This document shows, one piece after another, positions 6,297-28,392 of a DNA stretch of 29,094 nucleotides. The notes below the pieces were generated by a model. It worked only from the letters and a program-made list of their open reading frames with translations. It was not told the DNA's origin and made no database searches. The stretch comes from Actinomycetota bacterium (GTDB lineage Bacteria; Actinomycetota; Acidimicrobiia; Acidimicrobiales; Acidimicrobiaceae). Position 1 is the first letter of the stretch; the number at the start of each line of letters is the position of its first letter. The stretch lies in the NCBI GenBank assembly GCA_027318945.1, contig DAHVOF010000085.1, positions 1 to 29,094 on the forward strand, written 5' to 3'. The position numbers and the translations under genes are program-made.

Positions 6297-7001
6297 GTAA
6301 GGCTGCAGGTTTCGACCTCGCTTTCAACCTTGGCAATTTCTGGCGCGGCCTTGCTACCTAGTTCGCCAGCCTTTGCGCAGTCGTCCAACACGGTGACGGC
6401 AACTGTTCCTGTCGGCAGTCACCCAACCGGAGTTGCGTTCGGCTCGGCGAACAATGACATCTATGTCACGAATCGATACTCCGAAGCTGCTTCGGTCATG
6501 GCTACCCAGGTGGCCAAAGACCTGGCTATTGCCGCGCCGGCATATCTGACGGTATACGCCACAAGCTCTTCGGGCACTATGATCAAGTATTTTCTACCTG
6601 TGGTGAGCGACCCAGATGACGCAACTCTGCCTGTAGCTACACGCTCGCAGCCATCTGGTTCCGTATTTCCAGTGGGCGTGAGCACTGTGAACTGTTCGGT
6701 GAAAAGCTGCGACGACACTCGCAGTACAGTAGCAACAAGTTTCACAATTGACGTTCTTGGAGTGAAAAGCCAAATACGAAACCTGGAGTCTTATGCGATA
6801 GGTGTCGGACCTGCAAAAAGCCTCTCAAGCAGGATTCGTTCGGCACTTTCCGATCTCAACTCCGGCAATCCAAAACGTGCGAAGTCGGCACTTCTGAGCT
6901 TCGTCCATGAAGTCAGCGCGCAATCCGGCAAATAGAAAAGCAAGGCCAAGACGAGCGTCCTGAGCGCAGATGCCCAGCAGATCATAAGCGTCCTGGGCTA
7001 G
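6297..7001 (+). pseudogene. Decayed secreted protein: signal-like segment, one YVTN repeat, HYR-like domain, C-terminal helical (FIMAH-like) domain; in-frame TAG at 6933-6935
   Basis: ALLPSSPAFA signal end; VTATVPVGSHPTGVAF..NDIYVTN (YVTN); PSGSVFPVGVSTVNC..TSFTIDV (HYR-like); SFVHEVSAQSGK*KSKAKTSVLSADAQQIISVLG* continues 21 codons past the TAG to a second TAG at 6999-7001. No convincing start codon; the 5' boundary is approximate. Confidence 0.6.
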
Positions 7002-7013
7002 CCAAATCTTTTC

Positions 7014-7063
7014 ACCGAATCTCTCGTCCGGTGCAGTTCCTGCGTCTGGACGAGAGACCGAAT
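7014..7063. repeat. 36-bp element with 9-bp terminal inverted repeats flanked by 7-bp direct repeats; also folds as a terminator-like hairpin
   Basis: ACCGAAT [CTCTCGTCC GGTGCAGTTCCTGCGTCT GGACGAGAG] ACCGAAT read directly at 7014-7020, 7021-7056 and 7057-7063. Confidence 0.7.
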
Positions 7064-7312
7064 CTTTTGGCACGTCTTTCAAAGAAGAGCCGGCGAGCCG
7101 CTTAACCTGGAGAAATCAATGGGAGGACCATATAACGTGGCTCGCATATTGTGATCGGCAAATCGTCGCGACGTGTGATTGGGTTGCTTGATCACCCCTA
7201 TCACACTGAAGTCATGCCTTGCCTCTCGACGGGACATATCATTTCCTGCAATTGTGATAACTACCGCAATGTAGGCGCCTTGGGACGCTCGGTATTTACA
7301 AACTTCTTGACG

Positions 7313-7753
7313 CTAGAGGCCCATCCCCTGAAAAAGCTCCTCGATAGTTATGGGAGAGTTTTCGTTCTCGTTGATAGACACATGGACCGTGTAGGCATCG
7401 GTCAGAACTGTCCCATCAGCTCCCTGCGTCACATGCTTGATCCTGATGCTGGTAGTGCCGATGTCGGTCACGTATGAGGTTACCGTTACGACGTCGTCCA
7501 ACCCGAAAGGCTTCTTATACTCACAATGAGCGGAGATCACCGGAAGGGCGAAGCCGTTGGCGAGCATGTTGCTGAGCGAGATGCCAAGCTTGTGAAACAG
7601 CTGGATCTCGTTTCTGTCAATGAAGGAAAATATAGAAGCAAAATGTATTCTTGAGACGTCTACATCCTGCATCGATATGTGAATAGTCGACTCCACCTTG
7701 GTAGTTTCGAGCCGCTCTCTCCACGTCATTGTCTGCTCTTTCAATTCATTCAT
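7313..7753 (-). CDS. Acyl-CoA thioesterase, hotdog fold (4HBT/YbgC-like)
   Basis: QDVDVSRIHFASIFSFID aligns by eye with the D-T-D-x-x-G-x-V active-site segment; SAHCEYKKPFGLDD and TTSIRIKH are typical. An alternative start is possible at the MTW Met. Confidence 0.8.
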   Translation of the reverse strand: MNELKEQTMTWRERLETTKVESTIHISMQDVDVSRIHFASIFSFIDRNEIQLFHKLGISLSNMLANGFALPVISAHCEYKKPFGLDDVVTVTSYVTDIGTTSIRIKHVTQGADGTVLTDAYTVHVSINENENSPITIEELFQGMGL

Positions 7754-8596
7754 ATTCGCGCTTTCTAAAGTACTTTTCCCTGAGAATCTCCACTATACCG
7801 GACTGACCGCTTTACATCCTGCCGTTACGCCGTTCACCTGCCATGCTCTGGCGCTAATGCAGGGGCGAACAACACGCCGTCGAACTTTGCGGCCTTATAC
7901 ATCCGCGGCTCAAGCGGCTCATTTCAAAACGATCGAATCCTGTTTCACAAGCTTCTTACACCACTTACAACTTGCGGATCTGGAAAAAGATTTCCAAATC
8001 AAACAAACTTCCTTGAAAGCCCTCGTCAATCGACCGATAGGACACGCTGGCACCTAAGTTCCCTGGCAGCGTTTCTTTGCCAGCAACTGCAGATTCTTGG
8101 CCTGCGACAAGAATCAAGGTCAAAGTCAGGTTGACAATGACGAGGCCCTTTTCGGCGGTCTTTTCTGCATGGATTCGATGAATAGGGATTTGGATTTACT
8201 CCCGCGCGCCCCGTCGTAAGAACGAATATTGGATTCGACCTGGCACCTCAGGTTTCACTCTTCGCGAGCTGGATTTTGGACGATCCGGGATTTGCCGCCT
8301 CGTCAAAAAAGGACATTTGCCAACTCAGAGTTTTGCTAAAGCTCTTCGCGAACATTCGCGTCGCCAGTCCGTCGTTTCAATGTGGCTCTTTGGGACAAGC
8401 TATGCGACGGCTTTACCGTGGCGCCAATGTTCACCTTCACGGCCGACGATGTCGCTACCACGTATCAATCGGCTCAAGCACTATCTAGACTCAAAGCTTT
8501 GCCGTTTCGAGGAAAATGCGAACAGAAGAAACGGGCGAAAACTCTTATGCGGTCGAAGTAAATTCGATCCGTTCAGCAGCTAACCTGCTCAATCAA

Positions 8597-8625
8597 TAGT
8601 ATCATTTGTATGCGGGTGGATACAA
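8597..8625 (+). promoter_or_regulatory. Putative -10 box (TAGTAT) and GntR operator TTGTAT-N8-ATACAA overlapping the gntR start
   Basis: TAGTAT at 8597-8602 lies 7 nt before ATG 8610 with no SD, a leaderless-type layout. TTGTATGCGGGTGGATACAA at 8606-8625. Confidence 0.65.
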
Positions 8626-9305
8626 TGAAAGTTGGTCGAATGCCCAATAAGCGCAACGGGTCGACGATGGATTTCGCTTATGAAGCCATCAAAGCCGCAA
8701 TCCTGAACGGCCAGTATTCTGCTGGGGCTCGGCTCACAGAAGAGGACCTGGCAAAGACACTCGAGATTAGCCGCACACCGGTCAGAGAAGCTTTGCATCT
8801 TCTCGAGTCCGAACTGCTAGTGGAAACAGTTCCACGCGTTGGTCTTGTAGTTCCAGCGATCTCGATGGTCGATCTCGAGGAGATCTTCGAGGTTCGCTGG
8901 CTGGTTGACGGTTACTCAGCGCGCCTTGCGGCAAAGCGGATCTCGAAGGGTGAGCTGGCGACTTTGGAGGCCCTGCAGAAACGAATTGTCGAGGCCGCCG
9001 CGAACAAGGACAGCGCTGCTATGGGTCGCACCAACCTGCTGTTTCATCGAAAAATACTTGAGGCGACGCAAAATCGCCGTCTAATCGCATTCAGCAAAAG
9101 CATCGCAGATATCATCCAGCTGGCGATACAACAAACCACTTTGGACGGAGCCGAGTCGCGAATCATAGCCGAGCACAGCCGGATCCTTGAAGCGCTACTA
9201 GCGGAAGACCCGGATGCGGCTGAGGCTGCCGCCAGAGCGCACGTGGAGGCTGGCCTCGAATTCCACAGGCGGTACTTGGCGGAAACGACTCCACACAACG
9301 CGTAA
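8610..9305 (+). CDS. GntR-family transcriptional regulator with FCD effector domain
   Basis: wHTH YEAIKAAILNG...EEDLAKTLEISRTPVREAL; FCD domain with three His (LFHRKI, AEHSRI, RAHVE). Confidence 0.93.
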   Translation: MRVDTMKVGRMPNKRNGSTMDFAYEAIKAAILNGQYSAGARLTEEDLAKTLEISRTPVREALHLLESELLVETVPRVGLVVPAISMVDLEEIFEVRWLVDGYSARLAAKRISKGELATLEALQKRIVEAAANKDSAAMGRTNLLFHRKILEATQNRRLIAFSKSIADIIQLAIQQTTLDGAESRIIAEHSRILEALLAEDPDAAEAAARAHVEAGLEFHRRYLAETTPHNA

Positions 9306-9391
9306 TTTTGAGGGTGAATCTTCCAGCCGGCAGACCTCATCGCGCAGAGCCCATTTTGAGAAGCCAAAGGCTCGGTGTTCGACATGACGAG

Positions 9392-10180
9392 TTAGGTAAT
9401 CCGTCCTCCCAGTAGGGACTCTATGACTGCTTGATCCTCGAGCGCATCACCGATTGCACCCCGAAAGATGCGCTGACCCTGCTCCATCACTACCACCTCT
9501 GTACAGACTTTTGAGATGAAATCCATGTCATGCTCGACCAGAATGATCGTCAAATTCGTCGAGGTAAGCTGGGAGATCAGCCCGGCAAGATCGTTGCGTT
9601 CCTCCTCGTTCAGCCCTGCGGCCGGTTCGTCCAAAAGAAGGACCCTCGGTTGCTGGGCGACGGCTCGGGCGATATCGGCCTGCTTCGCCAATCCGTACGG
9701 TAGATCTCCCACCAACGTATTGGCATGCTCGGTAAGGCCCAGCAATGCTATTGAATCCAAAGCCGCCTTGCGCGATTCTTTTTCCAAAGCGCGCAGGAAC
9801 GGAATGCCTATCCCAAAATAGAGCATGCTTGATCTCGTGATAGCCTGGCGCCCTAGCATCGCAAGATCCACGACCTTCAGATCCAGGGGAATCTCAATAT
9901 GTTGGAATGTTCGTGCAATCCCGCGGCGCGTTACTTTATGGGGAGAGAGACGAGTAATCTCCTCCCGATCCAGGTAGATGCTGCCAGAGTGGGGAGAGTA
10001 GATTCCGCTCACACAGTTCAAAAGGCTGGTCTTACCCGATCCATTCGAGCCGACTATTCCAAGCACGCCGCCTGGCGAAACGTCAAAACTGACATCCGAA
10101 AGCACGGTCAGGCCGCCAAAAGACAGGCACAACCGGTCGACGCGGAGTGCGGAACCTTTTACCTCCAGCTCATTGCTCAC
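9392..10180 (-). CDS. ABC importer ATP-binding subunit, LivG-like
   Basis: GSNGSGKTS (Walker A), ARTFQ, LPYG..IARA, LLLDEPAAG, VEHDM. Start moved to GTG 10180, preceded by AAGGA and overlapping the upstream gene end. Confidence 0.9.
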   Translation of the reverse strand: MSNELEVKGSALRVDRLCLSFGGLTVLSDVSFDVSPGGVLGIVGSNGSGKTSLLNCVSGIYSPHSGSIYLDREEITRLSPHKVTRRGIARTFQHIEIPLDLKVVDLAMLGRQAITRSSMLYFGIGIPFLRALEKESRKAALDSIALLGLTEHANTLVGDLPYGLAKQADIARAVAQQPRVLLLDEPAAGLNEEERNDLAGLISQLTSTNLTIILVEHDMDFISKVCTEVVVMEQGQRIFRGAIGDALEDQAVIESLLGGRIT

Positions 10181-11045
10181 GGGCGTTTCCTTTGAACGAT
10201 CCGCTCCACTTGCTTCCCAAAAACGTCGAAAGAATTCCATCGCCGGCCAGCAAAGTTTCCTTGGTGCCGCTCGCCACTTGCCTTCCACTTTCAAGAACAT
10301 GGATTGTATTCGAAAACTCAAGCGCGACCGCGACACTCTGCTCGGCGGCAAGGATCGGAATGCCAGCTGAGGCGATCTTGGTCAAAGAAGTAACCATTGA
10401 GGCGATAACCGCAGGTGAAAGACCAAGGGTAAGCTCATCGACAATCATCAGTTTTGGACCCATGCACAGCGCGGATGCTAACGCCAGCATCTGGCGCTGA
10501 CCCCCGGAGAGGTAACCGCCTTTTCGATTCAAATGATTTCTAAGATCCGGAAAGACCGAAAGAGCCATCTCCCGCAGATCTCCCGAGCCTCTCCTATTAT
10601 TCCGGCCGACTCCAACTTGGAGATTCTCGAAGACGGTCAGATCGGTAAAGATCTTTTCCCGTTCAGGCACCATCACCAACCCTGCCCGCGACCGGTCCCA
10701 GGGTGCCAAATCACCGATATCGCGGCCCAGGAATTTGATCTTGCCCTTTGACGCCTTTGCTGCGTCTCTCTTGAGCAAGCCGGCTATGCCCCGCAACGTG
10801 GAGGTCTTGCCGGCTCCATTGGGACCCACCAAGGTCACAATCTGGCTCGGCCATACCTGCAAGGACACGCCCTGCACCCCAATACCGCCGCCTTTATAGA
10901 TGACACTTAGCTCCTCGACCGACAAAATCGGCTTTCCAACCCCGGCTGGAACGCTCCCTTGCAAACCGCCACCGTTGCTCGAGTTCAAGGTATCCGCCCT
11001 CTCGCCGCGATCTATCTCATCTGAACTGTCGGCACGCCCCAACAC
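10170..11045 (-). CDS. ABC importer ATP-binding subunit, LivF-like
   Basis: GPNGAGKTS, LSGGQRQM, VDELTLGLSP, AEQ; GAGGTGA upstream of the GTG. Confidence 0.9.
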   Translation of the reverse strand: MLGRADSSDEIDRGERADTLNSSNGGGLQGSVPAGVGKPILSVEELSVIYKGGGIGVQGVSLQVWPSQIVTLVGPNGAGKTSTLRGIAGLLKRDAAKASKGKIKFLGRDIGDLAPWDRSRAGLVMVPEREKIFTDLTVFENLQVGVGRNNRRGSGDLREMALSVFPDLRNHLNRKGGYLSGGQRQMLALASALCMGPKLMIVDELTLGLSPAVIASMVTSLTKIASAGIPILAAEQSVAVALEFSNTIHVLESGRQVASGTKETLLAGDGILSTFLGSKWSGSFKGNAREQ

Positions 11046-11049
11046 TTGC

Positions 11050-12114
11050 TCACCTCACTGCGGCGACGGCTTCGGCCGCGGACGATTTCCTACGTTTGAT
11101 CTTCGCAAGGCTGGCAATTCCTGCAGGCCGAAAGAACAGAAAGACAAGTATCGCCAATCCATAGACGGCGGTTTCCAATGAAGACAAATTTCTTTGTGCA
11201 AACCCGCCCAGGGTGCCGCTAAAAGTCGACGCGCCCGCTTGCATGAGAAATGGAATCATAGTTACGACAAAAGCTCCGATTATCGAACCCCAAATTGACG
11301 CCAGGCCCCCTATCAGAATCATGGCTACATAAGAGACCGTTAGTGTCAACGAATAATATCCATTGCTCACGTCCTGCATGAAGTATGCTCCCAGTCCGCC
11401 GGCCAGCCCGATGATTGCCGAGGACAGAGCAAAAACGGACAGCTTCGTCATTGTGACGTTCACTCCCACCACGGAAGCTGCCGCTTCATTGCGCCTCAGC
11501 GCGGCGAACGCTCTGCCGGGCTGCCCGCGAACGATATTCCATACAAACAGGGAAACAAGCACTAATACCACCAGCAGCACCATGAACCACACCTTCTCGC
11601 TGGCGATCTGCCACGGCCCCAGCTTGGCGGTCGGAACAAAATGGCCGGCGATAGCCCCGCTGCTCGTGTCATATTGATTCGCGGCAAAGGCGACCACGAA
11701 CTGAAGGGCCAGGGTGGAAAAGATCAAATAAAGGCCCGAAAGCCGCAAAGAAGGCAGTCCTATAGCAAAACCAACTATGGAAGCCGCGGCTGCGCCCGCA
11801 AAAATTGGAAGCGGAAAAGGCATCGACTTGTCCAGCAAAACTACCGAATAGGCACCGATGGCTAGAAATGCGGCATTGCCCACTGATATCAGACCGGCGT
11901 AACCGGTCAGCAGATTCAGCCCGATAGCACCTATGGCCGCGAGGATCGCGATATCAGCGTCATACACGTAAGCGCTGGAGCTGATCTGGGAAAAGACGAT
12001 CACCAACAAAATGACTGCTACGCCGGCAATCTTAGAGTAGTGCTCCCCGCCATAACGCAAGAGTTGCCGCTGCGTTTGCTGACCAGACGCTTGTGACAGC
12101 GTTTCGCTCTTCAT
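11050..12114 (-). CDS. ABC importer permease, LivM-like
   Basis: GLNLLTGYAGLISVGNAAF, PSLRLSGLYL, ILIGGLASIWG; ATGA overlap with the upstream permease. Confidence 0.9.
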   Translation of the reverse strand: MKSETLSQASGQQTQRQLLRYGGEHYSKIAGVAVILLVIVFSQISSSAYVYDADIAILAAIGAIGLNLLTGYAGLISVGNAAFLAIGAYSVVLLDKSMPFPLPIFAGAAAASIVGFAIGLPSLRLSGLYLIFSTLALQFVVAFAANQYDTSSGAIAGHFVPTAKLGPWQIASEKVWFMVLLVVLVLVSLFVWNIVRGQPGRAFAALRRNEAAASVVGVNVTMTKLSVFALSSAIIGLAGGLGAYFMQDVSNGYYSLTLTVSYVAMILIGGLASIWGSIIGAFVVTMIPFLMQAGASTFSGTLGGFAQRNLSSLETAVYGLAILVFLFFRPAGIASLAKIKRRKSSAAEAVAAVR

Positions 12115-12989
12115 AGGCGGGCTATCTCCCTGCTTCCGAACAATCCGGTGGGAGAGATGATCAACACCAAAAGGAGCACGAGGTAGCCAACCACATCTGA
12201 ATAACGCCCTCCAAGGTAGCTAACCGCAAATCCCTGGATTTCAGCTAAGATCACCGAACCGATCAGAGCGCCCCCAACTGAATCAAGGCCGCCCAGGATC
12301 ACCGCCGGGAATGCCGCAAAACCGAGCGCGTTCCCGGCACTTGGCGCCAAACCGTTTGTCGCGCCGTAAATTACCCCTGCCAAACCGGCGCCCGCAGTAG
12401 CGATTGCCCATGTCATAGCGGCCAACGTGGAGACATTGATGCCACGATATGTCGCAAGCAAAGGATTCTCCGCCGCCGCCCTCATGTGAGAGCCAAATCT
12501 AGACCACTTGAGAAGAACGCCGAAGGCGGTCAAAACCGCGGCGACGCTTATGACAACCGCAATGTCCAGCGCAGTTATGCTCACGCCCTCAGGAAAGTGG
12601 AGGATTGTCTTCGCACCCGGCACGTTGACGAATCGCGTGGCGCCGCCCCAAAGGATGAGATCGAGCGCCCCCAGAATAATGTTCAACGCAATCGTCAACA
12701 TAACCAGCAAGATGGCAGTTTCGCCGAGCAACGGCCTCAGCATCAAAGAATAAATGGATGCCCCGAGCAACATCGAAGCCACCACACTCAATACCACAGC
12801 CGGCCAGAAGGGTACGTGCGCCGATACAGCAATGCTGTAGAACAGGTACCCTCCCAAAAGAGCCAGCGTTCCCTGAGCGAAATTCAGCACCCGAGTACCT
12901 CGATACACGATTACGAAGCCAACGCCAATCAGCGCGTAAAGCGCCGCCGTCGGTAGCTGGCCTACGAACGTCTGGAGTGCCAGGTGCAT
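12111..12989 (-). CDS. ABC importer permease, LivH-like
   Basis: YALIGVGFVIVY..VLNFAQG, RAAAENP, VILGGLDS..GA, PTGLFG. ATG 12989 follows GGAGG at suitable spacing. Confidence 0.9.
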   Translation of the reverse strand: MHLALQTFVGQLPTAALYALIGVGFVIVYRGTRVLNFAQGTLALLGGYLFYSIAVSAHVPFWPAVVLSVVASMLLGASIYSLMLRPLLGETAILLVMLTIALNIILGALDLILWGGATRFVNVPGAKTILHFPEGVSITALDIAVVISVAAVLTAFGVLLKWSRFGSHMRAAAENPLLATYRGINVSTLAAMTWAIATAGAGLAGVIYGATNGLAPSAGNALGFAAFPAVILGGLDSVGGALIGSVILAEIQGFAVSYLGGRYSDVVGYLVLLLVLIISPTGLFGSREIARL

Positions 12990-13058
12990 TGAAGACAACC
13001 TCCGCTATCTCATTCTTCGAATTCTACGGGATATTTCCTCTTGGAATCCGGCCGAAGC

Positions 13059-14327
13059 CTAGGAACCAATCGGCAATAGCCCGGAGACGGCCGCGGGCTG
13101 AGACAGCGAAGTGTCCCAGTGCCAGAATCGGATTTCGTGAATGCCTACGTGGCTGCTCGAAGAATAACTCCAGTTGCCATAAGTCAGGCCTCCGGTATTG
13201 AGGTTTAGGGAGCTCAACACCGTTGACAGCTTTTGGCCGGAACACGGATAGCCACACTGCGACAAGGCGTGCCCAAGCACCCAGGCCTGAATATAACCGT
13301 TTATAAAGAATCCGGTGTTCGGATCGTCCGACGCCGCCTTTGCAGCCGCCACGAACTTCGTAAACTCGGGTCCTGGGCTCGGCTGACCAGCGACGTCATA
13401 TGGGAATGCCCTGATCACGTAGAAGTTGGGATCGGCCAAAGTCTTGAGGGTCGAATAAGCGCTGCCGCCGTCGTAATTGACGATGGGTCCTGTGAAACCC
13501 TGCTGCCGCAATGCCTGAACAGCACTGATAACCCAAGGCTCAGGCAAGGCCATTATCACTAGATTCGGGTTGGCTGCAGCCACAGCCGTCGATTCGGGAG
13601 CAGCCGTGGTAGCCGACATCGGCACCTGCTGATAGTTGACCATTTGCCAACCTTTGGCCTTTATCAGCTGCTCGGTCTTCGCGACGTAATTCGCGTTGTC
13701 CGCCACCTGCAAGGACATTATCCCAACTTTCACGGGCGAAGACCCAGCCACGGTCGCAGCAAAATTCACCACTGGCGCGGCTTCCGCTCCAATGACAACG
13801 TCACCCGCAAACATGTAGGGATTGGGAGGCGAAACCAAGCTCGTCGTAATCCCTTGTGATATCGTTGGCGTCTTGCTGGCCTCTAATACTGGAGCCGCTG
13901 CAACCAAAACCGTAGATAGAAACACCAATTCCGCATTTACATGATCAATCTGCGTAAGCTGCTTGGTGTTGGCTACTCCATTGGTCGGGTTTGAGCCGTC
14001 ATCCAGGGCAATCAGCTTAACTTTATGCCCGTTGATGCCTCCGTGATCATTCACATATGAAAAATATGCCTGGTAGCCGTTCCTGAGAGCGCCTCCCACT
14101 GCTGCTGCCGGACCGGATAGATCGCCCGTGGATCCCACCACATATGTCCCGCTTACCGCCGAACTGGAAGTCGTGCCCGTCGATGACGAGCTGCTCCCGC
14201 AAGCCGCCATCAACAATCCTGCAACCGCCAATCCGGTAGAAGTCAAGCCCAAGGCGCGACGCCGCTTGACCCTAACTGCTCCCCCACCTCCTAATTGAGG
14301 TGAAGCTTTCCGTAAATCTATGTTCAT
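13059..14327 (-). CDS. ABC substrate-binding lipoprotein, LivK/Peripla_BP_6 type
   Basis: AAGGAG SD; RRRAL...LMAAC signal with lipobox Cys followed by a Ser/Thr linker; GGINGHKVKLIALDD motif. Confidence 0.88.
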   Translation of the reverse strand: MNIDLRKASPQLGGGGAVRVKRRRALGLTSTGLAVAGLLMAACGSSSSSTGTTSSSAVSGTYVVGSTGDLSGPAAAVGGALRNGYQAYFSYVNDHGGINGHKVKLIALDDGSNPTNGVANTKQLTQIDHVNAELVFLSTVLVAAAPVLEASKTPTISQGITTSLVSPPNPYMFAGDVVIGAEAAPVVNFAATVAGSSPVKVGIMSLQVADNANYVAKTEQLIKAKGWQMVNYQQVPMSATTAAPESTAVAAANPNLVIMALPEPWVISAVQALRQQGFTGPIVNYDGGSAYSTLKTLADPNFYVIRAFPYDVAGQPSPGPEFTKFVAAAKAASDDPNTGFFINGYIQAWVLGHALSQCGYPCSGQKLSTVLSSLNLNTGGLTYGNWSYSSSSHVGIHEIRFWHWDTSLSQPAAVSGLLPIGS

Positions 14328-14565
14328 ATCTACTCCTTTATTTGGTAGACACCCCTGCTAAACCCTGATATCACAATTCATCAAGTCACCCAATTCACGT
14401 GCAATCAGCCCCACTCTTTGCAAACACTCCTATGCTCTAATGGTTTCTATCTCCTAAATCTCTTCCCGCATCAGGTTTCCCGCGTGCCGCGGCCTGCTCC
14501 GAAACCGTTTCATTGGTGATAAACCCTTCTGCATCCAAACCGGACGGCATTCACATCCATCGTCC

Positions 14566-15708
14566 TCACTTCACCAATATGTTGACGGTGCAGGCTGTGC
14601 CTTCCACGCCCTGGGCCTTGCCGCCCCTGCAGTGGGCTATTCCAACCTTGGGGCTTTTGATCTGGCGTTCTTTGGCGTCGCCTCGAAGCTGGCGGACCAG
14701 CTCCACCACTTGTGCGACACCTGTTGCTCCCAGCGGGTGTCCCTTGCCCAGAAGTCCGCCTGAGGCGTTGACTGGGAAGGTCCCGTCTATGTCCATCTCC
14801 CCTTTGACCACCCTTGAGACGTACTCGCCGTGGGGGATGAGGCCCATGCCCTCTACCCGAAGGGCCTCGGCTATCGAAAAGCAGTCGTGGACCTCTGCGA
14901 AGTCGATCTCTTCGGGGCCTATGCCGGCCTGGGCGTAGGCGGCCTCTGCGGTGCGCCAGGTTAGGTCCTCTACTGTCATGTCAACAAGTCCAACCTCTGT
15001 GCGGCCGCTTCTAAGGGATGTGGCTGCAAGCCTTATGGCTCTATTTGAGCCGTACTGCGATAGCTTGGAGCGGCTTATGAGCACCACCGCTGCAGCGCCG
15101 TCTGAGATGGGGGCGCACTCGTGCAGCCTGAGCGGGTCGGCTATGAGCCTGCCTGCTGCGACCTCTTCTAAGGTGACGGGCTTCTTGAAGTGCGACAAGG
15201 GGTTCATAGCGGCGTTCTTTTTGTTCTTCACAGCTATGTGGGCTATGTCTGAAGGGGTGACGCCGTACTGGAGCATGTAGCGCTGGGCTCTCATGGCGTA
15301 TATGCCGGGCATGGTGAGGCCGATCTGGGCCTCTATGTCGGTGGGGTCCGGAGCCAGCGCTCCTCTGAACATAGAGCTGAGATGCTCTACTCCCAATGCG
15401 AGCACCACGTCGTATGCTCCGGCCCTTATGGACATGGCGGCATCCCAGATGGCTGTGGACCCCGAAGAGCAGGCATTCTCGACATTGGCTATGGGCAGCC
15501 CCGAAAGCCCTGCGGCATAAAGGGCTCTCTGACCCATGGCCATGCCCTGATAGACGTGTCCCACCCAGGCGGCCTCTATGTCTTTTCTGCTCACTCCTGC
15601 GTCTTTGAGAGCCAGGCCTATGGCCTCTGATCCCAAATCGGCGGCGCTGCGATCAGGATGCCTGCCGAAAGGGGTCATCCCTATGCCAAGCACATATACG
15701 TCATCCAT
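14566..15708 (-). CDS. Thiolase, SCP2/SCPx-type (DUF35-partnered)
   Basis: ENACSSG (nucleophile Cys), EVHDCF, NASGGLLGKGHPLGATG. Start moved to ATG 15708, 5 nt after AGGAGG. Confidence 0.92.
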   Translation of the reverse strand: MDDVYVLGIGMTPFGRHPDRSAADLGSEAIGLALKDAGVSRKDIEAAWVGHVYQGMAMGQRALYAAGLSGLPIANVENACSSGSTAIWDAAMSIRAGAYDVVLALGVEHLSSMFRGALAPDPTDIEAQIGLTMPGIYAMRAQRYMLQYGVTPSDIAHIAVKNKKNAAMNPLSHFKKPVTLEEVAAGRLIADPLRLHECAPISDGAAAVVLISRSKLSQYGSNRAIRLAATSLRSGRTEVGLVDMTVEDLTWRTAEAAYAQAGIGPEEIDFAEVHDCFSIAEALRVEGMGLIPHGEYVSRVVKGEMDIDGTFPVNASGGLLGKGHPLGATGVAQVVELVRQLRGDAKERQIKSPKVGIAHCRGGKAQGVEGTACTVNILVK

Positions 15709-15731
15709 ATGCTCCTCCTTGTAAAGATCGT

Positions 15732-16136
15732 TCAAGCCTGTCGGCTCTGTGCATGCGGTAGCAGGACCAGGGCTCCATCTATTAGCCTCGGGCCGGGGGC
15801 CAGCACTATCTCGGCCTCGGCGCCTATCACAGGGGTTCCATCTCCGAGATATGGAAGCAGCACCCGCACGTCTTGGGGGAAATCTATGTACACCATGGCG
15901 TAGGGGGCTTCGAACTCAGGGGTGGACTGCCTTATCACGGTGTAGGTGTAGATGATCCCGTGGTCCGCTAGAGCCAGCTCTTCTAGGCCTTCTGTGCCAT
16001 CGGCTGGGCAGATGGTCCTCGAGGGGAAAAAGGCGGCAGAGCAGCTGGGGCATCTAGAGCCGAGAAGGTGCACCTTGCCCTGGCTCTGGCGGTACTGCAT
16101 GATCTCTGGCGCAGAGGGGGACTCTATGTCTGGCAT
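15732..16136 (-). CDS. DUF35 Zn-ribbon/OB-fold acyl-CoA-binding protein
   Basis: GSRCPSC..FFPSRTICPAD, GIIYTYTVI, PYAMVYIDF; directly upstream of the thiolase; ATG 16136 follows GGAGAG. Confidence 0.88.
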   Translation of the reverse strand: MPDIESPSAPEIMQYRQSQGKVHLLGSRCPSCSAAFFPSRTICPADGTEGLEELALADHGIIYTYTVIRQSTPEFEAPYAMVYIDFPQDVRVLLPYLGDGTPVIGAEAEIVLAPGPRLIDGALVLLPHAQSRQA

Positions 16137-16153
16137 TGATCTCTCCATATCTA

Positions 16154-16900
16154 CTAGTAGGCTCCGATGCTTCTTCCGCCGCAGACGTACATGACCTGGC
16201 CGGTGATGTACCAGGAGTCGTCGTCGGCGAAGAAGGCAACAGCGTGGGCGATCTGTTCTGGGCCCCCAACCCTTCCTATGGGCACCGTCTTTGTGAGCTT
16301 GTCCTGGGTCTCAGGAGACAGGCTTCTGAACAGGGCGGTGTCGACGAGGCCCGGGGCCACTGCATTGGCGGTTATCTGGTACTTGGCGAACTCGAGGGCC
16401 AAGGTGCGGGTGAGCGAGACCACCCCTCCTTTGGAAGCTGAGTAGTTGGCCTGTCCAGCCCCGCCCAGCCAGGCGCGGGAGCCGATGTTTACGATCCTGC
16501 CGTAGCCGGAGTCCATCATGTGCTTGGCTGCCGCCTGGGTGGTGAGGAACTGGGACTTCAGGTTTATCCTTATAACCTCGTCCCAATCCTCCTCGCTCAT
16601 CTTGATGAGCCACTTGTCCCTGGCGATACCGGCGTTGTTGACCAAGATGTCTATGCGGCCAAAGCGCTCCAAGGCGTGATCTATCAGCCCTTGGGCGCCT
16701 TCTTTTTTGGACACGTCGCCACAGAACCCGCTCACCTCGTAGCCCTTGGAGCCGAGCTCATCTGATACAGAAGAGACCCTGTCGGGGTCTATGTCGTTTA
16801 TCACTACACGAGCAGCGCCCTCTGCGAGCCTCTCGGCTATGGACAGGCCGATTCCCTGTCCCGAACCTGTCACCACGGCTACGCGGTCATTGATGCCCAT
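16154..16900 (-). CDS. Short-chain dehydrogenase/reductase (FabG-like), probable hydroxyacyl-CoA dehydrogenase
   Basis: TGSGQGIG, LVNNAG, YSASK; operon context. Confidence 0.9.
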   Translation of the reverse strand: MGINDRVAVVTGSGQGIGLSIAERLAEGAARVVINDIDPDRVSSVSDELGSKGYEVSGFCGDVSKKEGAQGLIDHALERFGRIDILVNNAGIARDKWLIKMSEEDWDEVIRINLKSQFLTTQAAAKHMMDSGYGRIVNIGSRAWLGGAGQANYSASKGGVVSLTRTLALEFAKYQITANAVAPGLVDTALFRSLSPETQDKLTKTVPIGRVGGPEQIAHAVAFFADDDSWYITGQVMYVCGGRSIGAY

Positions 16901-16903
16901 CTA

Positions 16904-17686
16904 TCACCTTCCTATGAACTTCGGTGGACGCTTCTCTACGAACGCTCTCATGCCTTCCTCGCGATCCTTGGTGTTGCGCAGGAAAGCGTGGCAGAGCTCT
17001 TCGAACTCGAGCCCGCTCGCGAGATCGGTGCTCATGGCCACGTAGATGCTGCGCTTGATGCGGTCTATGGACAAAGGGGCCTTGGAGGCTATCTTCTCTG
17101 CCAGCTCTGTGGCTTGGGCAACTGCGGCGCCCTCAGGGACCACCTTTTGGACCATGCCCAGACGGTAGGCCTCCTGGGCGTCTATGCGGTCACAGCTGAA
17201 CATGAGCTCCATGGCAACCGCTGGTCCCACGAGCCGTGTCAGGCGCTGGGTGCCTCCTGCTCCTGGCATGGAGCCAACGTTGGCCTCTGGGAAGCCGAAG
17301 CGGGCTGTTGTGTCTGCGATCCTTATGTCACAGGCCAGGGCCAGCTCTAACCCTCCTCCTAGGACGTATCCTGCCAGAGCGGCAATCACTGGCTTTGAGA
17401 GCTTGGCCATCAAGGAGAAGAGGTCTCTTATGATCCTGCCCATGGGATCCGCCACGCCTCCGGAGTCGTACTCCGCCACCCTTGCTTTTAGATCAGCTCC
17501 GACGGAGAAGGCCTTGGGCTGGCCGGAGATGACAACGGCGCGGACCTCCTGATCGAGGCCGTGGGCTTCTAAGAGCTCGCCCAGCTCTGCGAGCATCTGC
17601 GGGGTCAGGGCGTTGAGAGCCTCCGGGCGGTTTATGGATATCTGAGCCACGCCGTTTGAGATAGACGAGCCAATAAGTTCAGACAA
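16904..17686 (-). CDS. Enoyl-CoA hydratase (crotonase family)
   Basis: [38 protein letters not shown] with both catalytic Glu present; REGM.AF.EKR.P.F tail. Confidence 0.92.
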
Positions 17687-17730
17687 AGCGCAAGTACCTC
17701 CAAAGCATTGTTATGCGGGAACGGGATTCA

Positions 17731-18951
17731 TCAGCCATCTTCGGCCTCTTGGTAGCCGAGCTGCTCCACTACCTGGGAGCTGATCCATGACTCGCAAACG
17801 TCAAGGGGGACTTTCGCTATCTCGGTCAGGATCTCTACGGTGTTCTCACCTGGAAGCGGAGCAGCTCTGGCAGCTCTGGGGGGAGTGCGCGACAGCCGGG
17901 CGGCCATCCCTACCCCTGGGGTGGGACCAAGAGCGGGATGGGAGAGCGATGGGAAGCGGTCGGAGGTGACCAGGTGGCTTTCTTTACAGAGAGAGTCGTA
18001 GTCGTAGATCTTGGCGCAGACCACGTCTGAGTCTTCGAGCCTTTTCACCCAGTAGTCGGTGGGGGCTCCCTCGAATATCCGGCTCAGCTCAAAGAAGAGC
18101 TCTTTTCTGTTTGCCACCCTGAGTGCTATGTCACAGAAGCGGGGATCATCGGCCAGCGAGGGGCGGTCTATGGCCTGGGTGAACTTGAGCCAGCGGTCTG
18201 GCCAGTAGGCGGCGACCATGATGTAGCCGTCCTTGGTGGGGAAGGCCTCGTTGGGGGCGGCGTAGGGGGCGGCGCTGCCTTGTTTTCCCGGAGAGGACCC
18301 GCTGGCTAAGAACATGGACAAAGGCACGGTCTGGAACATCAACATGGCGTCCAACAAAGAGAGGTCCACCCTCTGGCCAAGGCCGCTGCGGTTGCGCTCC
18401 AGGAGAGCCAGCAGTATCCCCTGGGCGGCCAAAAAGCCCCCTACGGTGTCTGCGGCTGGAACGCCGACTTTGACCGGGGCCCCTTGGGGCTCTCCGGTAA
18501 CGCTCATGATCCCAGAGATGGCCTGGACTATGCCGTCCACTCCGGGCTTGTCCTTCCAGGGGCCGTCTTGGCCGAAGGCTGTTATAGAGCACCAGATGAT
18601 GCCGGGGTGTTTTACAGAGAGGCTCTCGTAGCTGAAGCCGAAGCGTTCCAGAACGCCGGGGCGGAAGCTTTCAACCACGACGTCTGCCGATTCTGAGAGC
18701 TTTTCGAGCACCTCTGCGCCTTTGGGATGCTTTAGGTCCACAACGATGGAACGCTTGTCTCGATTCATACCCAGATAAGCCGCCGCCTGATCTTTTATGA
18801 AGGGGGGGCCGAGCTTTCTGCCCCATTCTCCTCCAGGGGGATCCACCTTTATGACCTCAGCCCCGTACTGGGCTAAGACCATGGTGGCTATAGGGCCTGC
18901 GGCACCTTGGGAGAGATCGAGAATCGTGGTTCCATCGAGAGGGGGCTGCAC
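17731..18951 (-). CDS. Family III (CaiB/BaiF/Frc-like) CoA-transferase
   Basis: LDLSQ..AGP, NRDKRSIVVDLK, ADVVVESFRPG, VPAADTVGG (catalytic Asp), P.PGENT.EIL; GAGAGGAG upstream of the GTG. Confidence 0.93.
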   Translation of the reverse strand: MQPPLDGTTILDLSQGAAGPIATMVLAQYGAEVIKVDPPGGEWGRKLGPPFIKDQAAAYLGMNRDKRSIVVDLKHPKGAEVLEKLSESADVVVESFRPGVLERFGFSYESLSVKHPGIIWCSITAFGQDGPWKDKPGVDGIVQAISGIMSVTGEPQGAPVKVGVPAADTVGGFLAAQGILLALLERNRSGLGQRVDLSLLDAMLMFQTVPLSMFLASGSSPGKQGSAAPYAAPNEAFPTKDGYIMVAAYWPDRWLKFTQAIDRPSLADDPRFCDIALRVANRKELFFELSRIFEGAPTDYWVKRLEDSDVVCAKIYDYDSLCKESHLVTSDRFPSLSHPALGPTPGVGMAARLSRTPPRAARAAPLPGENTVEILTEIAKVPLDVCESWISSQVVEQLGYQEAEDG

Positions 18952-19453
18952 TAGCCGGCTCCTCTCCCTGCCGCCTTTGCCAAGGATCCGCCTGTGCCGC
19001 CGGATAGAGCCGAATGGGAATCCAAGATTCGCCAGTTCAGGGAATGGGAGGCACGCGGCTGCAAATCGATAAAGGTTGCAATAGCTCGCCCTCTCAAGCA
19101 GTTTCCGCCCCCAACAGTGGCACCCTCTTCGCGCGCCAAGGGCCCCCAGAGAACACTCCCGATAATGAACGATCCACTTGAAGTCGAACTCAAATCGAAA
19201 CTGGATCTCCAGATTCCGGGCAAGGCCTCACGTAAACCCATGGCATCTGCGACGCCAAAATTCGGCCCGCAAACGACACTCTTCGATCCACGAATCAATT
19301 CGACCCCTCCAACTGCAAGTGCTCCGCTCCCATCCCAATCCAATTCCGGGAATCCAAGGAGCATTCATACCGGAAGGCTGCTGACCCTGTACCCGCTCTA
19401 AAAATTTCGAATAACAGCATCGCAAATCCCACATGTAATACTGTTGCATTCGT

Positions 19454-19473
19454 TTGTATACAGTATCATACAA
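19454..19473. promoter_or_regulatory. Second copy of the putative GntR operator TTGTAT-N8-ATACAA
   Basis: TTGTATACAGTATCATACAA: same 6-8-6 inverted-repeat geometry as 8606-8625, in an AT-rich patch about 500 bp upstream of the CoA-transferase start. Confidence 0.65.
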
Positions 19474-20130
19474 TCATTGGGCTCGCAAAATATTAATGCG
19501 ATATAGGCCACATAAATGGACGCAGATCCTTACGAACTTGCAACTGCCAACCGGTATTTTCAACACATCGCTTCTAGCGATGGCCAGCAAATTTACCCGT
19601 TGCACGATTCCGACAGACAGCGCATGCTCTCCATCACAGCTCACGTCCTATGTGCAGCTTTCAAAGCGCACAAACCAATGTGGTTTCCACTTTGAACCGA
19701 TCCAAGTCAACAACGCCTACCCAGATCGAGCCGCTCAGCCGTTCCATTAATTCGAGAGTTGACTGTTGCGGTTCGGCATGCGGATTACCCGCGGGTATCT
19801 GTCCCGGCGACTTCACACTCGACTATTTCCACTACCGAAAGTGTCGGCGGGCTTCGACAGCTGAGTGAGAAGTTACTCCCTTCGACACAGCTGCTTCTGG
19901 CGACTTCATGTCGAACGATGCCTGGCAGACCGGAAGGCTATTCGGTCACAATTAGCGACCCTTTTCTAGTGGGTTTGAAATGTCCTATCAACGACCATCC
20001 ACCAGCTCAGAGGGCACTATATCTTTCCGGGCCAGCTTTTGTGGAGATTATTTCCGGTAATTCTCGGCTTATAACGCCCGAACTACGGACACAGGTGTTT
20101 CAACGTTTCGGACCAATAGGTTTGAACCCA

Positions 20131-20484
20131 TTAGAGGCGAGTGCACGCTGCTACAGCTTCTGCGTGATCAGCCGCAATCTCAACGCCTAATCTGACAAGT
20201 TCCACGACACGAGGATCGTCGACCTTGTAGTAAGTAAAGTGTCCTTCGCGTCTCGAAGTAATGAGACCGCAGTTCACTAGGCATAGAAGGTGGGTCGAAA
20301 CCCGGCTTTGTGCCAAACCTAATAAGGCCACACATTCGGTGCCAGTGTGCTCACCATCGACCAAAAATTCAACAAGAGCTAGCCGACTTGGATCGCTTAC
20401 CGCCTGGAAAAATTTTGCGAGAATCGTTCTTCCAGCAATGTTCGTGGGAATTAGCGGGGCTTCGCCCTCAAGAAGATCTGACAT
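20131..20484 (-). CDS. ArsR/SmtB-family metalloregulator, CmtR-like, probable mercury-responsive repressor
   Basis: AVSDPSRL, LGLAQSRVSTHLLCLVNCGL (CxxxC in helix 4), YYKV, C-terminal AAC; divergent from merA. Confidence 0.88.
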   Translation of the reverse strand: MSDLLEGEAPLIPTNIAGRTILAKFFQAVSDPSRLALVEFLVDGEHTGTECVALLGLAQSRVSTHLLCLVNCGLITSRREGHFTYYKVDDPRVVELVRLGVEIAADHAEAVAACTRL

Positions 20485-20563
20485 ATGGCCTCAATTCATT
20501 GTCTCTCAAAATTCTAAGAGATACCAAGGCATTGGCATTCATTGAGCTGATCGATTTCAGCCT

Positions 20564-20585
20564 TATATACGCAATTACGGATATA
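20564..20585. promoter_or_regulatory. Imperfect inverted repeat between arsR and merA, candidate ArsR operator
   Basis: TATATACG-CAATTA-CGGATATA (7 of 8 arm positions complementary); TATACT follows at 20592-20597. Confidence 0.5.
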
Positions 20586-20640
20586 TTGATGTATACTTTA
20601 CCTTGTTAGCTATTCCAACCCGTCGCCAAGGAGGAGTACT

Positions 20641-22290
20641 ATGACGGACTCCCGATACAGCGTCCTCGAGGTACGCGGAATGACCTGCGATGACTGTGCA
20701 GCGCACGTGACTTCAGCTCTTGAGAGGGCGGGCGCAAAGGACGTTTCTGTGGCGTGGCAGGATGGAGAGGCAAAGTTTTCTTGGCCCTTGGAAATACCTG
20801 AGGCAGCTTTGCGCGCCGAGGTGAGTAGCGCTGGTTATCAGCCTGGGTTCCTTAGAGTTTTGGATGATTCAAGCAAACTACCCGGGGATTCCGAAGCGGA
20901 TTATGACCTGCTCGTCATAGGTGCTGGATCTGCAGCTTTCGCAGCCGCCATCAAAGCGACTGAGGCAGGCTACCGTGTTGCGTTGGTCGAGCAGGGTACT
21001 CTCGGTGGAACCTGTGTAAATGTCGGATGTGTGCCGTCCAAGGCACTATTGAGGGCTGGCGAGGCCGCTTGGTCTACAGAACATCATCCTTTCCAAGGTG
21101 TAAAAGCAATACTTGAATCGGTCAATTTGGCCAAAGTGGTCACTCAAAAAGATCAGCTGGTAAATACGCTTCGTCAGGTCAAGTACGCTGATCTGGTAGA
21201 AGATTACGGCTTTACCGTTATAGACGGGCACGCCCGTTTTAGCGGAGAAAGTACCGTTGAAGTCGACGGAAAGCGGATAACTGCTTTAAAGATTCTGATC
21301 GCCACCGGAGCGTCTCCTAGCATACCTCCGATTCCCGGACTAGGTGAATCTGGGTATTTGACCTCCACGACTGCGCTCGAACTCGAGGCGGTGCCTGATT
21401 CAATAGCGGTCATTGGTGCCAATGCCATAGGTCTCGAACTTGGCCAGTTTTTTCTTCACCTCGGTTCAAAGGTGACTTTCATCGACGTCGCAGATCGAAT
21501 CGCGCCTTTTGAAGAGCCGGAAATATCTGAGGCGATGAGACAACTATTAACTTCGCAGGGAGCGACAATCTATACTTCAGCGAACGTTACTGCCATAGCA
21601 TTAGCAGATGAGCGACGCGTCATCCACCTCAATGTCGGCACCGAAGCACAGGATGTTGTTGTCGATGAGATACTGGTTGCCACGGGGCGCCGTCCAAATA
21701 CTGAGGATCTCGGTCTTGCGGAAGCCGGGATTCAGACCGACGCCAGAGGCGCTATCGAAGTTGACGACCAGCTGCGAACCACCAATCGCAATGTCTACGC
21801 AGCTGGCGACGTCACAGGCGCGCCGCAATTCGTGTACGTTTCAGCTTACGAAGGTGCCTTGGCAGTAGATAATGCGCTCTTGGGAACTGTTAGAGCCATT
21901 GATTTCAGGGGGCTTCCAAAAGTTACGTTCACGTCTCCCCAATTAGCATCAGCCGGACTCACGGAATCACAGGCTCGAGAAGCAGGATTCGAAGTCGTGA
22001 CGTCGATTCTTCCAATTGATGCGATTCCCAGGGCTCTGGTCAATCATGACACTGCTGGCCTTTTCAAGCTTGTAGCAGAGGTCAAGACTGGAAAGTTATT
22101 GGGAGCGTCGATCATGGCGGACGGTGCTGCCGAGGTGATCCAGTCGGCGGTGCTAGCTATCAAATACGGCATTTCCATCGAGGACTTGGCGTCTACTTTC
22201 CATCCATACTTGACCATGGCCGAAGGTCTGAAGCTCGCCGCGCAAACCTTCACTAGGGACGTGCACAAACTTTCGTGTTGTGCCGCCTAG
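20641..22290 (+). CDS. merA: Mercuric reductase
   Basis: N-terminal GMTCDDC metal-binding domain, GAGSAA FAD motif, GGTCVNVGCVPSK redox dithiol, FHPYLTMAEGLKLAAQTF, C-terminal LSCCAA vicinal Cys pair; AAGGAGGAG SD. Confidence 0.97.
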   Translation: MTDSRYSVLEVRGMTCDDCAAHVTSALERAGAKDVSVAWQDGEAKFSWPLEIPEAALRAEVSSAGYQPGFLRVLDDSSKLPGDSEADYDLLVIGAGSAAFAAAIKATEAGYRVALVEQGTLGGTCVNVGCVPSKALLRAGEAAWSTEHHPFQGVKAILESVNLAKVVTQKDQLVNTLRQVKYADLVEDYGFTVIDGHARFSGESTVEVDGKRITALKILIATGASPSIPPIPGLGESGYLTSTTALELEAVPDSIAVIGANAIGLELGQFFLHLGSKVTFIDVADRIAPFEEPEISEAMRQLLTSQGATIYTSANVTAIALADERRVIHLNVGTEAQDVVVDEILVATGRRPNTEDLGLAEAGIQTDARGAIEVDDQLRTTNRNVYAAGDVTGAPQFVYVSAYEGALAVDNALLGTVRAIDFRGLPKVTFTSPQLASAGLTESQAREAGFEVVTSILPIDAIPRALVNHDTAGLFKLVAEVKTGKLLGASIMADGAAEVIQSAVLAIKYGISIEDLASTFHPYLTMAEGLKLAAQTFTRDVHKLSCCAA

Positions 22291-28284: not shown

Positions 28285-28392
28285 GATGACTCTCCTCAAG
28301 TTAAAGGCTGTGCCAAATCATTCGGTGGTGGAGGCTATGCGTTTCCAGTGCCGAACCCAGGCCAGCTCGCGTAAATTACAGCCATTGAATAA

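Follow-up and report, generated by a model that had tools for sequence, protein, structure and literature searches.

A duplicated Bbs-like gene module without an acyl-CoA dehydrogenase in an Acidimicrobiia genome, and its putative place in aryl-CoA formation

The stretch of DNA analyzed here (the window) is the entire 29,094-bp contig C221 of an Acidimicrobiia metagenome-assembled genome (MAG; G000, 2.07 Mb, 79% complete). The source samples of this MAG are mine-drainage metagenomes; in the sediment runs X5-X8, only about one tenth of the sampled sequence words were present, which supports no conclusion on habitat. The window carries a run of five genes (the core) that encode a family III CoA-transferase, a crotonase, a short-chain dehydrogenase/reductase (SDR), a DUF35 protein and a thiolase, and that resemble the enzymes that carry out beta-oxidation of benzylsuccinate in anaerobic toluene degradation (BbsEF, BbsG, BbsH, BbsCD and BbsAB of Thauera and Geobacter metallireducens; PMC10818641). 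Sequence comparison leads us to favor, with moderate confidence, the reading that the window holds a second copy (copy B) of a four-step, dehydrogenase-independent Bbs-like module, the parent set of which (copy A and its neighbors) would turn aryl keto acids into aryl-CoA and succinyl-CoA. The new results are that the locus is a duplicated fragment, that stumps of its former neighbors are conserved, that a pair of candidate operators of its GntR regulator accompanies it, and that its importer is lineage-specific. They describe a Bbs-type module without a dehydrogenase, and the wider pathway is still hypothetical. The original prediction, made from the sequence of the window, had proposed a novel self-contained catabolic locus with its own importer, regulator and thioesterase. 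Its Bbs-like character, the absence of an acyl-CoA dehydrogenase in every orthologous context and its undescribed status are retained here, while self-containment and the membership of the thioesterase are not.

Composition and relatives of the five-gene core

All five core genes lie on the reverse strand. The first (17731-18951) encodes a CoA-transferase III (PF02515, E=2e-116) that contains the catalytic Asp149 and is predicted to be of the succinyl-CoA:dicarboxylate type. It is followed by a crotonase-fold enoyl-CoA hydratase (16904-17686; PF00378, E=6e-69) with Glu114 in the motif GGGLELA and Glu134 in FPEANVG, a BbsD-like 3-hydroxyacyl-CoA dehydrogenase of the SDR family (16154-16900, assigned by its PDB match), the DUF35 zinc-ribbon/OB subunit of the thiolase (15732-16136; PF12172 and PF01796), and the SCP-x type, BbsB-like thiolase itself (14566-15708, Pfam), with its Cys-x-Ser, HDCF and GHP motifs. 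The whole gene set named in the original prediction was recovered with Pfam on the strands given, and the motifs quoted for crotonase and thiolase were all present.

The proteins were compared with 177,635 distinct PDB sequences. The SDR matched BbsD best (7pcs_B, 264 bits, over residues 1-246 of 248, with the next match 34 bits lower), and in this full-length alignment the identity was about 50% as judged by eye. BbsB was the top match of the thiolase (7pxp_C, 267 bits), with Cys, HDCF and GHP conserved; against the NCBIfam BbsB model it scored 295 versus a cut-off of 750, which is below equivalog level. For the DUF35 protein, an archaeal DUF35 ranked first in the PDB and BbsA second, and BbsA was its sole NCBIfam match (49.9 versus a cut-off of 250). 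The ranks of BbsD, BbsB and BbsA among solved relatives bear out the description of the module as Bbs-like, and the account of the Bbs pathway given with that description agrees with PMC10818641. The fourth zinc-ribbon ligand of the DUF35 protein is Asp in the genus of the window (CxxC...CxxD) and Cys in orthologues of other lineages. The top matches of the crotonase were generic short-chain or dicarboxylyl hydratases, in a comparison set that held no BbsH reference. The CoA-transferase matched succinate-hydroxymethylglutarate CoA-transferase best (250 bits, versus 140 and 120 bits for the BbsEF chains, 9fn0), and its top NCBIfam matches were the succinate-glutarate and succinyl-CoA:mesaconate transferases, both below cut-off. 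That it is nearer to the hydroxymethylglutarate, glutarate and mesaconate enzymes than to BbsEF suggests a transferase that depends on succinyl-CoA and acts on a dicarboxylate. Likewise, the likeness to BbsB and BbsD points to 2-substituted succinyl-CoA esters as probable intermediates, and not to plain cinnamoyl- or cyclohexenoyl-CoA. A dicarboxylic enoate, one of the substrates originally suggested, is compatible with this evidence.

All 13 related loci compared have the five genes in the same order, which recurs in other Acidimicrobiia and an Armatimonadota genome (38-73% identity); judged from these sequences, such conservation is far beyond chance. Ten congeners have all five in order at 54-85% identity. 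No NCBIfam equivalog cut-off was reached and no describing paper was found in the literature searched, in line with the view that the module is undescribed. The absence of an acyl-CoA dehydrogenase and of an AMP-binding CoA ligase from the window was confirmed by scanning all open reading frames (ORFs) of at least 200 aa, and none of the 12 acyl-CoA dehydrogenase matches of the genome lies on this contig. Six loci examined for it (L032, L036, L037, L054, L055 and L039) were also without an acyl-CoA dehydrogenase. The source MAG has four CoA-transferase/DUF35/thiolase modules (on contigs C10, C153, C217 and C221); the other three are 28-39% identical to that of the window, and only the module on C153 has an adjacent acyl-CoA dehydrogenase. 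Its presence there indicates that the lack of this enzyme is a feature of the window-type module and not of the organism. Altogether, ten family III CoA-transferase genes were counted in the 2.07 Mb of this genome.

Copying of the core and its new surroundings

The core lies in a 4,506-bp segment (14548-19053) that occurs in two contexts, as seen in Logan unitigs and in sister assemblies. In run X1, a unitig spanning exactly this segment has a depth of 19.8, versus 5.9-8.6 for four alternative flanks, and in run X2 the core unitig stands at 13.9 versus about 7 for the flanks; these depths derive from contigs and are indicative only. In three samples the ratio comes close to 1:1, which a genome with two copies explains better than two strains would, and we place the segment at about two copies per genome. 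Loose ends stand at both borders in three to four runs, the unitigs of three runs break at the same two bases, and a unitig of run X3 bridges position 14548 by 76 nt. Four sister MEGAHIT assemblies with an identical CoA-transferase show three arrangements, in which the core is joined to a 2-oxoacid:ferredoxin oxidoreductase (POR), to the LIV-type importer, to PrpF- and PaaK-like genes, or to the MerA side of the window (Mer): POR-core-LIV-GntR-thioesterase, Mer-core-PrpF-PaaK, and POR-core-LIV. Their breakpoints fall exactly at window positions 19053 and 14548. These sister assemblies (L032-L035) resolve the 4.5-kb repeat into every flank combination, and any single contig that passes through it, that of the window among them, may pair left and right flanks chimerically, a caution for users of MAGs.

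Both borders carry the remains of other genes. On the right, contigs L032 and L034 have a full POR gamma gene and their identity to the window ends at 19053, while contig C147 of the same MAG ends in a POR gamma gene. In the window, an ORF across this junction (orf137, 18951-19364, reverse strand, without a Pfam match) ends in 34 codons (18951-19053) that are the 3' remnant of the gamma gene, with identical C-terminal peptides, fused to an unrelated stretch of 103 codons. On the left, the first 137 bp of contig C189, also from this MAG, match the 3' end of the thiolase gene exactly (14548-14684), and the contig continues with a PrpF-family gene, a ligase and a different solute-binding protein (SBP). 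The start of the PrpF gene falls inside these 137 bp, and the overlap leaves a 46-bp 5' remnant of it in the window (14548-14593, reverse strand). Copy B therefore arose by copying of the 4.5-kb segment, with stumps of both neighboring genes left behind, and the copy with the stumps, that of the window, is the derived one. The two copies in the MAG are at least 99.9% identical. A search for repeats around the junctions returned only short ones at chance level, with no target-site duplication and no insertion-sequence ends.

Because the window contig runs through the two-copy repeat, the linkage of its two sides has to be deduced. A congener from another study (G006, an independent assembly) has the POR gamma stump, the core, the PrpF stump and GntR on one 82-kb contig. 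Its gamma stump begins at the same residue as that of the window, its PrpF remnant (42 aa) is in the same place, and its GntR protein, encoded directly downstream of the core, is a 69% identical orthologue. The presence of both stumps on one copy, the homology with this congener and a candidate operator on both flanks (see below) favor the order Mer side, core, LIV, GntR. Recombination between the copies in part of the population may be the source of the other flank combinations. The stumps are common to both species, the core proteins of which differ by 15-46%, and yet identity between the two copies within the source MAG reaches at least 99.9%; one has to assume gene conversion or a recent renewed copying. 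A canonical POR gamma gene was sought in the congener, and only a 34% identical paralogue was found.

The regulator gene (8625-9305, forward strand) is convergent with the operon and encodes a GntR/FCD protein by Pfam (PF00392, 63 bits; PF07729, 85 bits) that reached no NCBIfam equivalog. The palindrome TTGTAT-N8-ATACAA occurs as an exact match at its start (8606-8625) and again at 19454-19473, at a distance of 90 bp upstream of orf137; by chance, 0.01 exact matches would be expected in the window, where two are present. In the congener, the GntR start has an exact copy, and a copy with two mismatches lies upstream of the operon. On this pattern, the palindrome is a candidate GntR operator at both ends of copy B, and the transcription unit probably starts further to the right than originally proposed, at orf137 and the palindrome at 19454-19473. 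A promoter and terminator scan of 7000-20700 found sites more rarely than in shuffled sequences and is for this reason uninformative on breaks in the operon.

The importer (9392-14327, reverse strand; gene calls in L032) has the complete HAAT/LIV gene set in one run, as assigned by Pfam: two ABC ATPases (9392-10180 and 10170-11045), two BPD_transp_2 permeases (11050-12114 and 12111-12989) and a Peripla_BP_6 lipoprotein SBP (13059-14327), all on the reverse strand. The SBP has a lipobox and is not the amino-acid equivalog (36 bits versus a cut-off of 477). No counterpart was found in the 46 other genomes of the family (47 searched, including its own), and only eleven relatives with E<=1e-30 were found in a large protein collection. 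A 54% identical relative is encoded in a GntR/FCD-LIV locus, after which come a CitE/HpcH-like lyase and a CoA-transferase III, the typical make-up of a dicarboxylate route. The context of another relative, 78% identical, is uninformative; its contigs end in the permeases. These comparisons suggest that the importer is of a probable dicarboxylate-binding family, foreign to the genome and joined to copy B in this lineage. Several of the nearest solved relatives of the SBP are probably aromatic-acid binders of Rhodopseudomonas.

Beyond the regulator lies the 4HBT/YbgC-like hotdog thioesterase (7313-7753, reverse strand; Pfam 4HBT and 4HBT_2 above cut-off, TIGR00051 at 42.6 versus 68.7), which had only weak, generic YbgC-like matches in the PDB (E=1e-5). 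Orthologues occur in five congeners (53-84% identity), two of them without the core, and in one (G004) the gene is linked to MFS1, the same MFS gene as in the window. Its conservation in coreless congeners and its linkage to the MFS gene mark it as native flank, probably outside the system. A 146-aa 4HBT gene beside the supercluster (described below) in the complete genome CP129495 was considered as its counterpart and rejected as unrelated (E=0.53). Of the three accessory parts that the original prediction had assigned to the locus, the regulator is thus found with the core in two species, the importer in this lineage only, and the thioesterase falls out. A gene-free gap of 857 bp separates the thioesterase from GntR; at 7754-8605 there is no called gene and no Rfam match, and the two small ORFs have no Pfam match. 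A border of the inserted block may lie inside it.

The parent supercluster and its proposed chemistry

In congeners, the core is usually preceded by a three-subunit POR and followed by a PrpF-family gene, a PaaK-like ligase and a different LIV importer, an order found in 11 of 13 related loci. More widely, a conserved set of genes was found in a congener, in other Acidimicrobiia and in one Armatimonadota genome (38-73% identity): a LeuC/LeuD-DmdB-family hydro-lyase, the PaaK-like ligase, a LeuA-like synthase, an indolepyruvate:ferredoxin oxidoreductase (IOR), a second 2-oxoacid:acceptor oxidoreductase, often a TetR gene, the five-gene core and the PrpF-family gene. The window core belongs to this supercluster: it is identical to a POR/PrpF-flanked copy in the same samples, and 51-73% identical to the cores of loci L036, L037, L054 and L055 (DUF35, 38-45%). 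The locus is accordingly a duplicated fragment of a larger supercluster with a PaaK-like ligase and double-bond-forming enzymes, and not self-contained as first proposed. The top PDB match of the PrpF-family enzyme is 3-methylitaconate delta-isomerase (3g7k, 282 bits, versus 196 for PrpF), an enzyme that interconverts acids of the itaconate and maleate types; this likeness had been predicted beforehand from the chemistry. In the complete Acidimicrobiia genome CP129495.1 (L055, 499524-520747) the supercluster is rearranged: the LeuCD-like genes stand in an operon with the CoA-transferase, crotonase and SDR, and DUF35, thiolase and isomerase are divergent and followed by an Hcr-like molybdenum enzyme.

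We propose that, in copy A (contigs C147 and C189 of the source MAG), the LeuA-like synthase would condense an arylpyruvate with acetyl-CoA to a 2-arylmethyl-malate, which the LeuCD-like hydro-lyase would dehydrate to a 2-substituted maleate and the isomerase would convert, by a 1,3-proton shift, into an arylidene-succinate (the itaconate form). This 2-arylidene- (or alkylidene-) succinate, a substituted itaconate, would then be activated by the succinyl-CoA-dependent family III CoA-transferase, the resulting CoA ester hydrated by the crotonase, and the alcohol oxidized by the BbsD-like SDR. Finally, the DUF35/BbsB-like thiolase would release an aryl-CoA (benzoyl- or 4-hydroxybenzoyl-CoA) and succinyl-CoA, which recharges the transferase. 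Since the double bond would come from dehydration, before CoA activation, neither BbsG nor another acyl-CoA dehydrogenase would be needed. No member of the HGD-D family was found in the source MAG, which is 79% complete. The aryl-CoA product would enter the aerobic Box benzoyl-CoA pathway, of which BoxB is present in the genome. The enzymes of copy B, being identical to those of copy A, should have the same specificity, and copy B may allow the cell to use a pathway intermediate, or a close analogue, that is imported from outside. Two readings of it fit the data: an operon that takes up and cleaves the free intermediate or a close analogue, or additional dosage of the cleavage steps under separate regulation.

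The evidence for an aryl substrate comes from the supercluster and its genomes. The IOR alpha subunit scores above its equivalog cut-off, and the PaaK-like ligase reaches 557 against a cut-off of 646. Directly after the Armatimonadota cluster there is a four-subunit set with top family matches to benzoyl-CoA reductase C, B, A/Q and D/Q, none of which reaches its cut-off, and in CP129495 the cluster has as neighbors a BcrAD gene and an enzyme of the xanthine dehydrogenase family with three subunits, Hcr-like in its domains. BoxB, the aerobic benzoyl-CoA epoxidase, was detected above cut-off in the source MAG, as in each of the 11 genus genomes. Among 300 evenly sampled Acidimicrobiia species, 13 carry an orthologue of the thiolase (58-63% identity), and BoxB occurs in 11 of these 13 versus 12 of the 287 others, which is to be read as a pattern and not as a test statistic because the co-occurring genomes are related. 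In one family (f40), the same 8 of 16 genomes carry both genes, and in genome G231 the two are 12 kb apart. CP129495, with its anaerobic-type genes, is one of the two carriers without BoxB. Genes for the dearomatization of benzoyl-CoA thus accompany the core in nearly all carriers.

A more specific version of this scheme is held only tentatively, as possible and not as probable: the supercluster might be a new O2-independent route from aryl 2-oxoacids (Phe and Tyr breakdown) to benzoyl-CoA and succinate, and copy B a salvage operon that imports free arylidene-succinate, e.g., phenylitaconate, under a GntR regulator that senses the intermediate. Phenylitaconate is a by-product of anaerobic toluene degraders. 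If the overall scheme holds, it would be a second bacterial way to shorten aromatic side chains to benzoyl-CoA, independent of O2, of the molybdenum phenylacetyl-CoA oxidoreductase and of an acyl-CoA dehydrogenase, with succinyl-CoA recycled as in the toluene pathway. No paper in the literature searched connects the formation of benzoyl-CoA with benzylmalate, methylitaconate isomerase or isopropylmalate-type enzymes.

Besides the relatedness of the genomes that share BoxB, several observations weigh against the favored reading of a copied module for aryl keto acid breakdown. No core protein reaches any NCBIfam equivalog cut-off, and every Bbs cut-off is missed. There is one SDR gene in place of the BbsC and BbsD pair, and the CoA-transferase is a single gene and not an orthologue of the heteromeric BbsEF. 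The scheme has no proven role for either oxidoreductase or for the PaaK-like ligase, and all its proteins were assigned by sequence comparison. Copy B is without synthase, hydro-lyase and isomerase, so that copy A or an outside source must supply its substrate. The match of the SBP to its nearest solved relatives is weak (E=5e-13), which bears on the binding of an arylidene-succinate. Lastly, short reads cannot phase a 4.5-kb repeat, and two of the sister contigs connect the LIV side with POR.

The locus could nonetheless work as first proposed, with the LIV importer taking up an unsaturated acid of the cinnamate, cyclohexenecarboxylate or itaconate/mesaconate type, the five enzymes shortening it and the thioesterase freeing the product. 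Its genes are co-oriented with short gaps, the operator pair brackets the unit, the SBP family is found elsewhere beside a CoA-transferase III and a CitE-like lyase, and the dehydrogenase is missing in every context. We consider this unlikely, given that the core is identical to a copy in a supercluster with its own substrate-forming enzymes and ligase, that the thioesterase is native flank, that within the family the importer is unique to the source MAG, and that the BbsB and BbsD likeness points to 2-substituted succinyl-CoA esters. A module that keeps the proposed chemistry and draws alkylidene-succinates from aliphatic 2-oxoacids (2-oxobutyrate via ethylmalate and ethylidenesuccinate), giving acyl-CoA and succinyl-CoA, seems quite improbable. 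LeuA- and LeuCD-like enzymes usually act on aliphatic 2-oxoacids, the second oxidoreductase is of the generic 2-oxoacid:acceptor type, and the crotonase is closest to short-chain or dicarboxylyl hydratases, but the IOR alpha subunit is at the equivalog cut-off, the ligase is close to PaaK, benzoyl-CoA reductase-like and Hcr-like genes adjoin the cluster, and BoxB co-occurs with the core.

It is very improbable that the core stands beside the LIV/GntR flank, or beside the Mer flank, only through chimeric joining during assembly and with no biological meaning. The four MEGAHIT sister assemblies do place different flank combinations around an identical core, and both alternative flanks are in the MAG as separate contigs. 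Against this, both junctions lie at positions identical to the base in several runs, the X3 unitig crosses position 14548, the gene stumps recur in the independent G006 assembly beside an orthologous GntR gene, and the same palindrome stands on both flanks; at most, the pairing of left and right flanks is uncertain. It is equally hard to believe that the module runs in the biosynthetic direction, condensing acyl-CoA with succinyl-CoA and releasing a substituted itaconate or succinate. Bbs beta-oxidation is reversible and has been run backwards in E. coli (PMC10818641), and archaeal DUF35-thiolase pairs are condensing enzymes (PDB 6esq). The module is, however, coupled to an importer and not to an exporter, it co-occurs with benzoyl-CoA-consuming pathways, and GntR/FCD regulators are typical of catabolic operons. 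The reading of the window as copy B of the Bbs-like module remains the one we favor. Since copy B separates the cleavage module from the genes that form its substrate and connects it to an SBP and a GntR of its own, the ligands of these two proteins should name the pathway intermediate, which makes the window the most useful place for testing the scheme.

Flanking genes and comparison with known systems

Directly beside the inserted module, the stretch 20131-22290 encodes a MerA that carries an HMA domain and a divergent ArsR-type regulator, a pair that fits the mine-drainage source. Further to the right, a 219-aa ORF (25806-26465, forward strand) has a DUF4143 domain only and resembles the C-terminal part of a longer ATPase gene; such a fragment would suggest a rearranged accessory region. 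At 26644-29067 (reverse strand) there is a thiamine diphosphate (ThDP) enzyme with benzoylformate decarboxylase as its top NCBIfam match (337 bits versus a cut-off of 493), followed by a partial aldehyde dehydrogenase, which makes a pair as in a mandelate-type lower pathway. A DNA paralogue, about 70% identical, lies on contig C117 beside a LeuCD-like pair and a CoA-transferase III. Rfam and tRNA scans of the window gave no match.

The module of the window shares with the Bbs pathway the families and reaction types of its enzymes (CoA-transferase III, crotonase, SDR, DUF35 and SCP-x thiolase) and, as predicted here, the regeneration of succinyl-CoA by thiolysis. It differs in that BbsG is missing here and in the orthologous clusters examined, in its one CoA-transferase gene, nearer to the hydroxymethylglutarate and mesaconate transferases, and in its one SDR in place of BbsC and BbsD. 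The host is an aerobic-type member of Acidimicrobiia with a Box pathway, and these clusters have no benzylsuccinate synthase. With the CoA-transferase and lyase routes for itaconate, mesaconate and malate (Ict/Ich/Ccl and SmtAB/Mcl), the module shares a family III CoA-transferase of the kind that acts with succinyl-CoA on a C4-C5 unsaturated or hydroxy dicarboxylate, and the 54% identical SBP relative is found in such a GntR-LIV-lyase-transferase locus. In contrast to these systems, the window has an SDR and a thiolase and no C-C lyase, and hydration of plain itaconyl-CoA would give a tertiary alcohol, which an SDR could not oxidize.

For the supercluster, the nearest parallels lie elsewhere. 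Nicotinate fermentation by Eubacterium barkeri uses 3-methylitaconate delta-isomerase (Mii, PDB 3g7k) and the dimethylmaleate hydratase DmdAB of the LeuCD family, and the supercluster likewise pairs an Mii-like isomerase with a LeuC/LeuD-DmdB-family hydro-lyase, two enzymes that can interconvert substituted malate, maleate and itaconate. In the supercluster, however, a LeuA-like synthase and a CoA-dependent Bbs-like module accompany this pair in place of a B12 mutase and a lyase, and the window retains only the 46-bp stump of the isomerase gene. In homophenylalanine biosynthesis of Nostoc, the benzylmalate synthase HphA and HphCD elongate the chain of an aromatic 2-oxoacid. Similarly, from phenylpyruvate the LeuA- and LeuCD-like enzymes would form 2-benzylmalate and benzylmaleate, the two compounds proposed here as precursors of the module's substrate. 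The supercluster differs from the Hph system in that no LeuB-like dehydrogenase was seen in it; its intermediate would go instead to isomerization and CoA-dependent cleavage.

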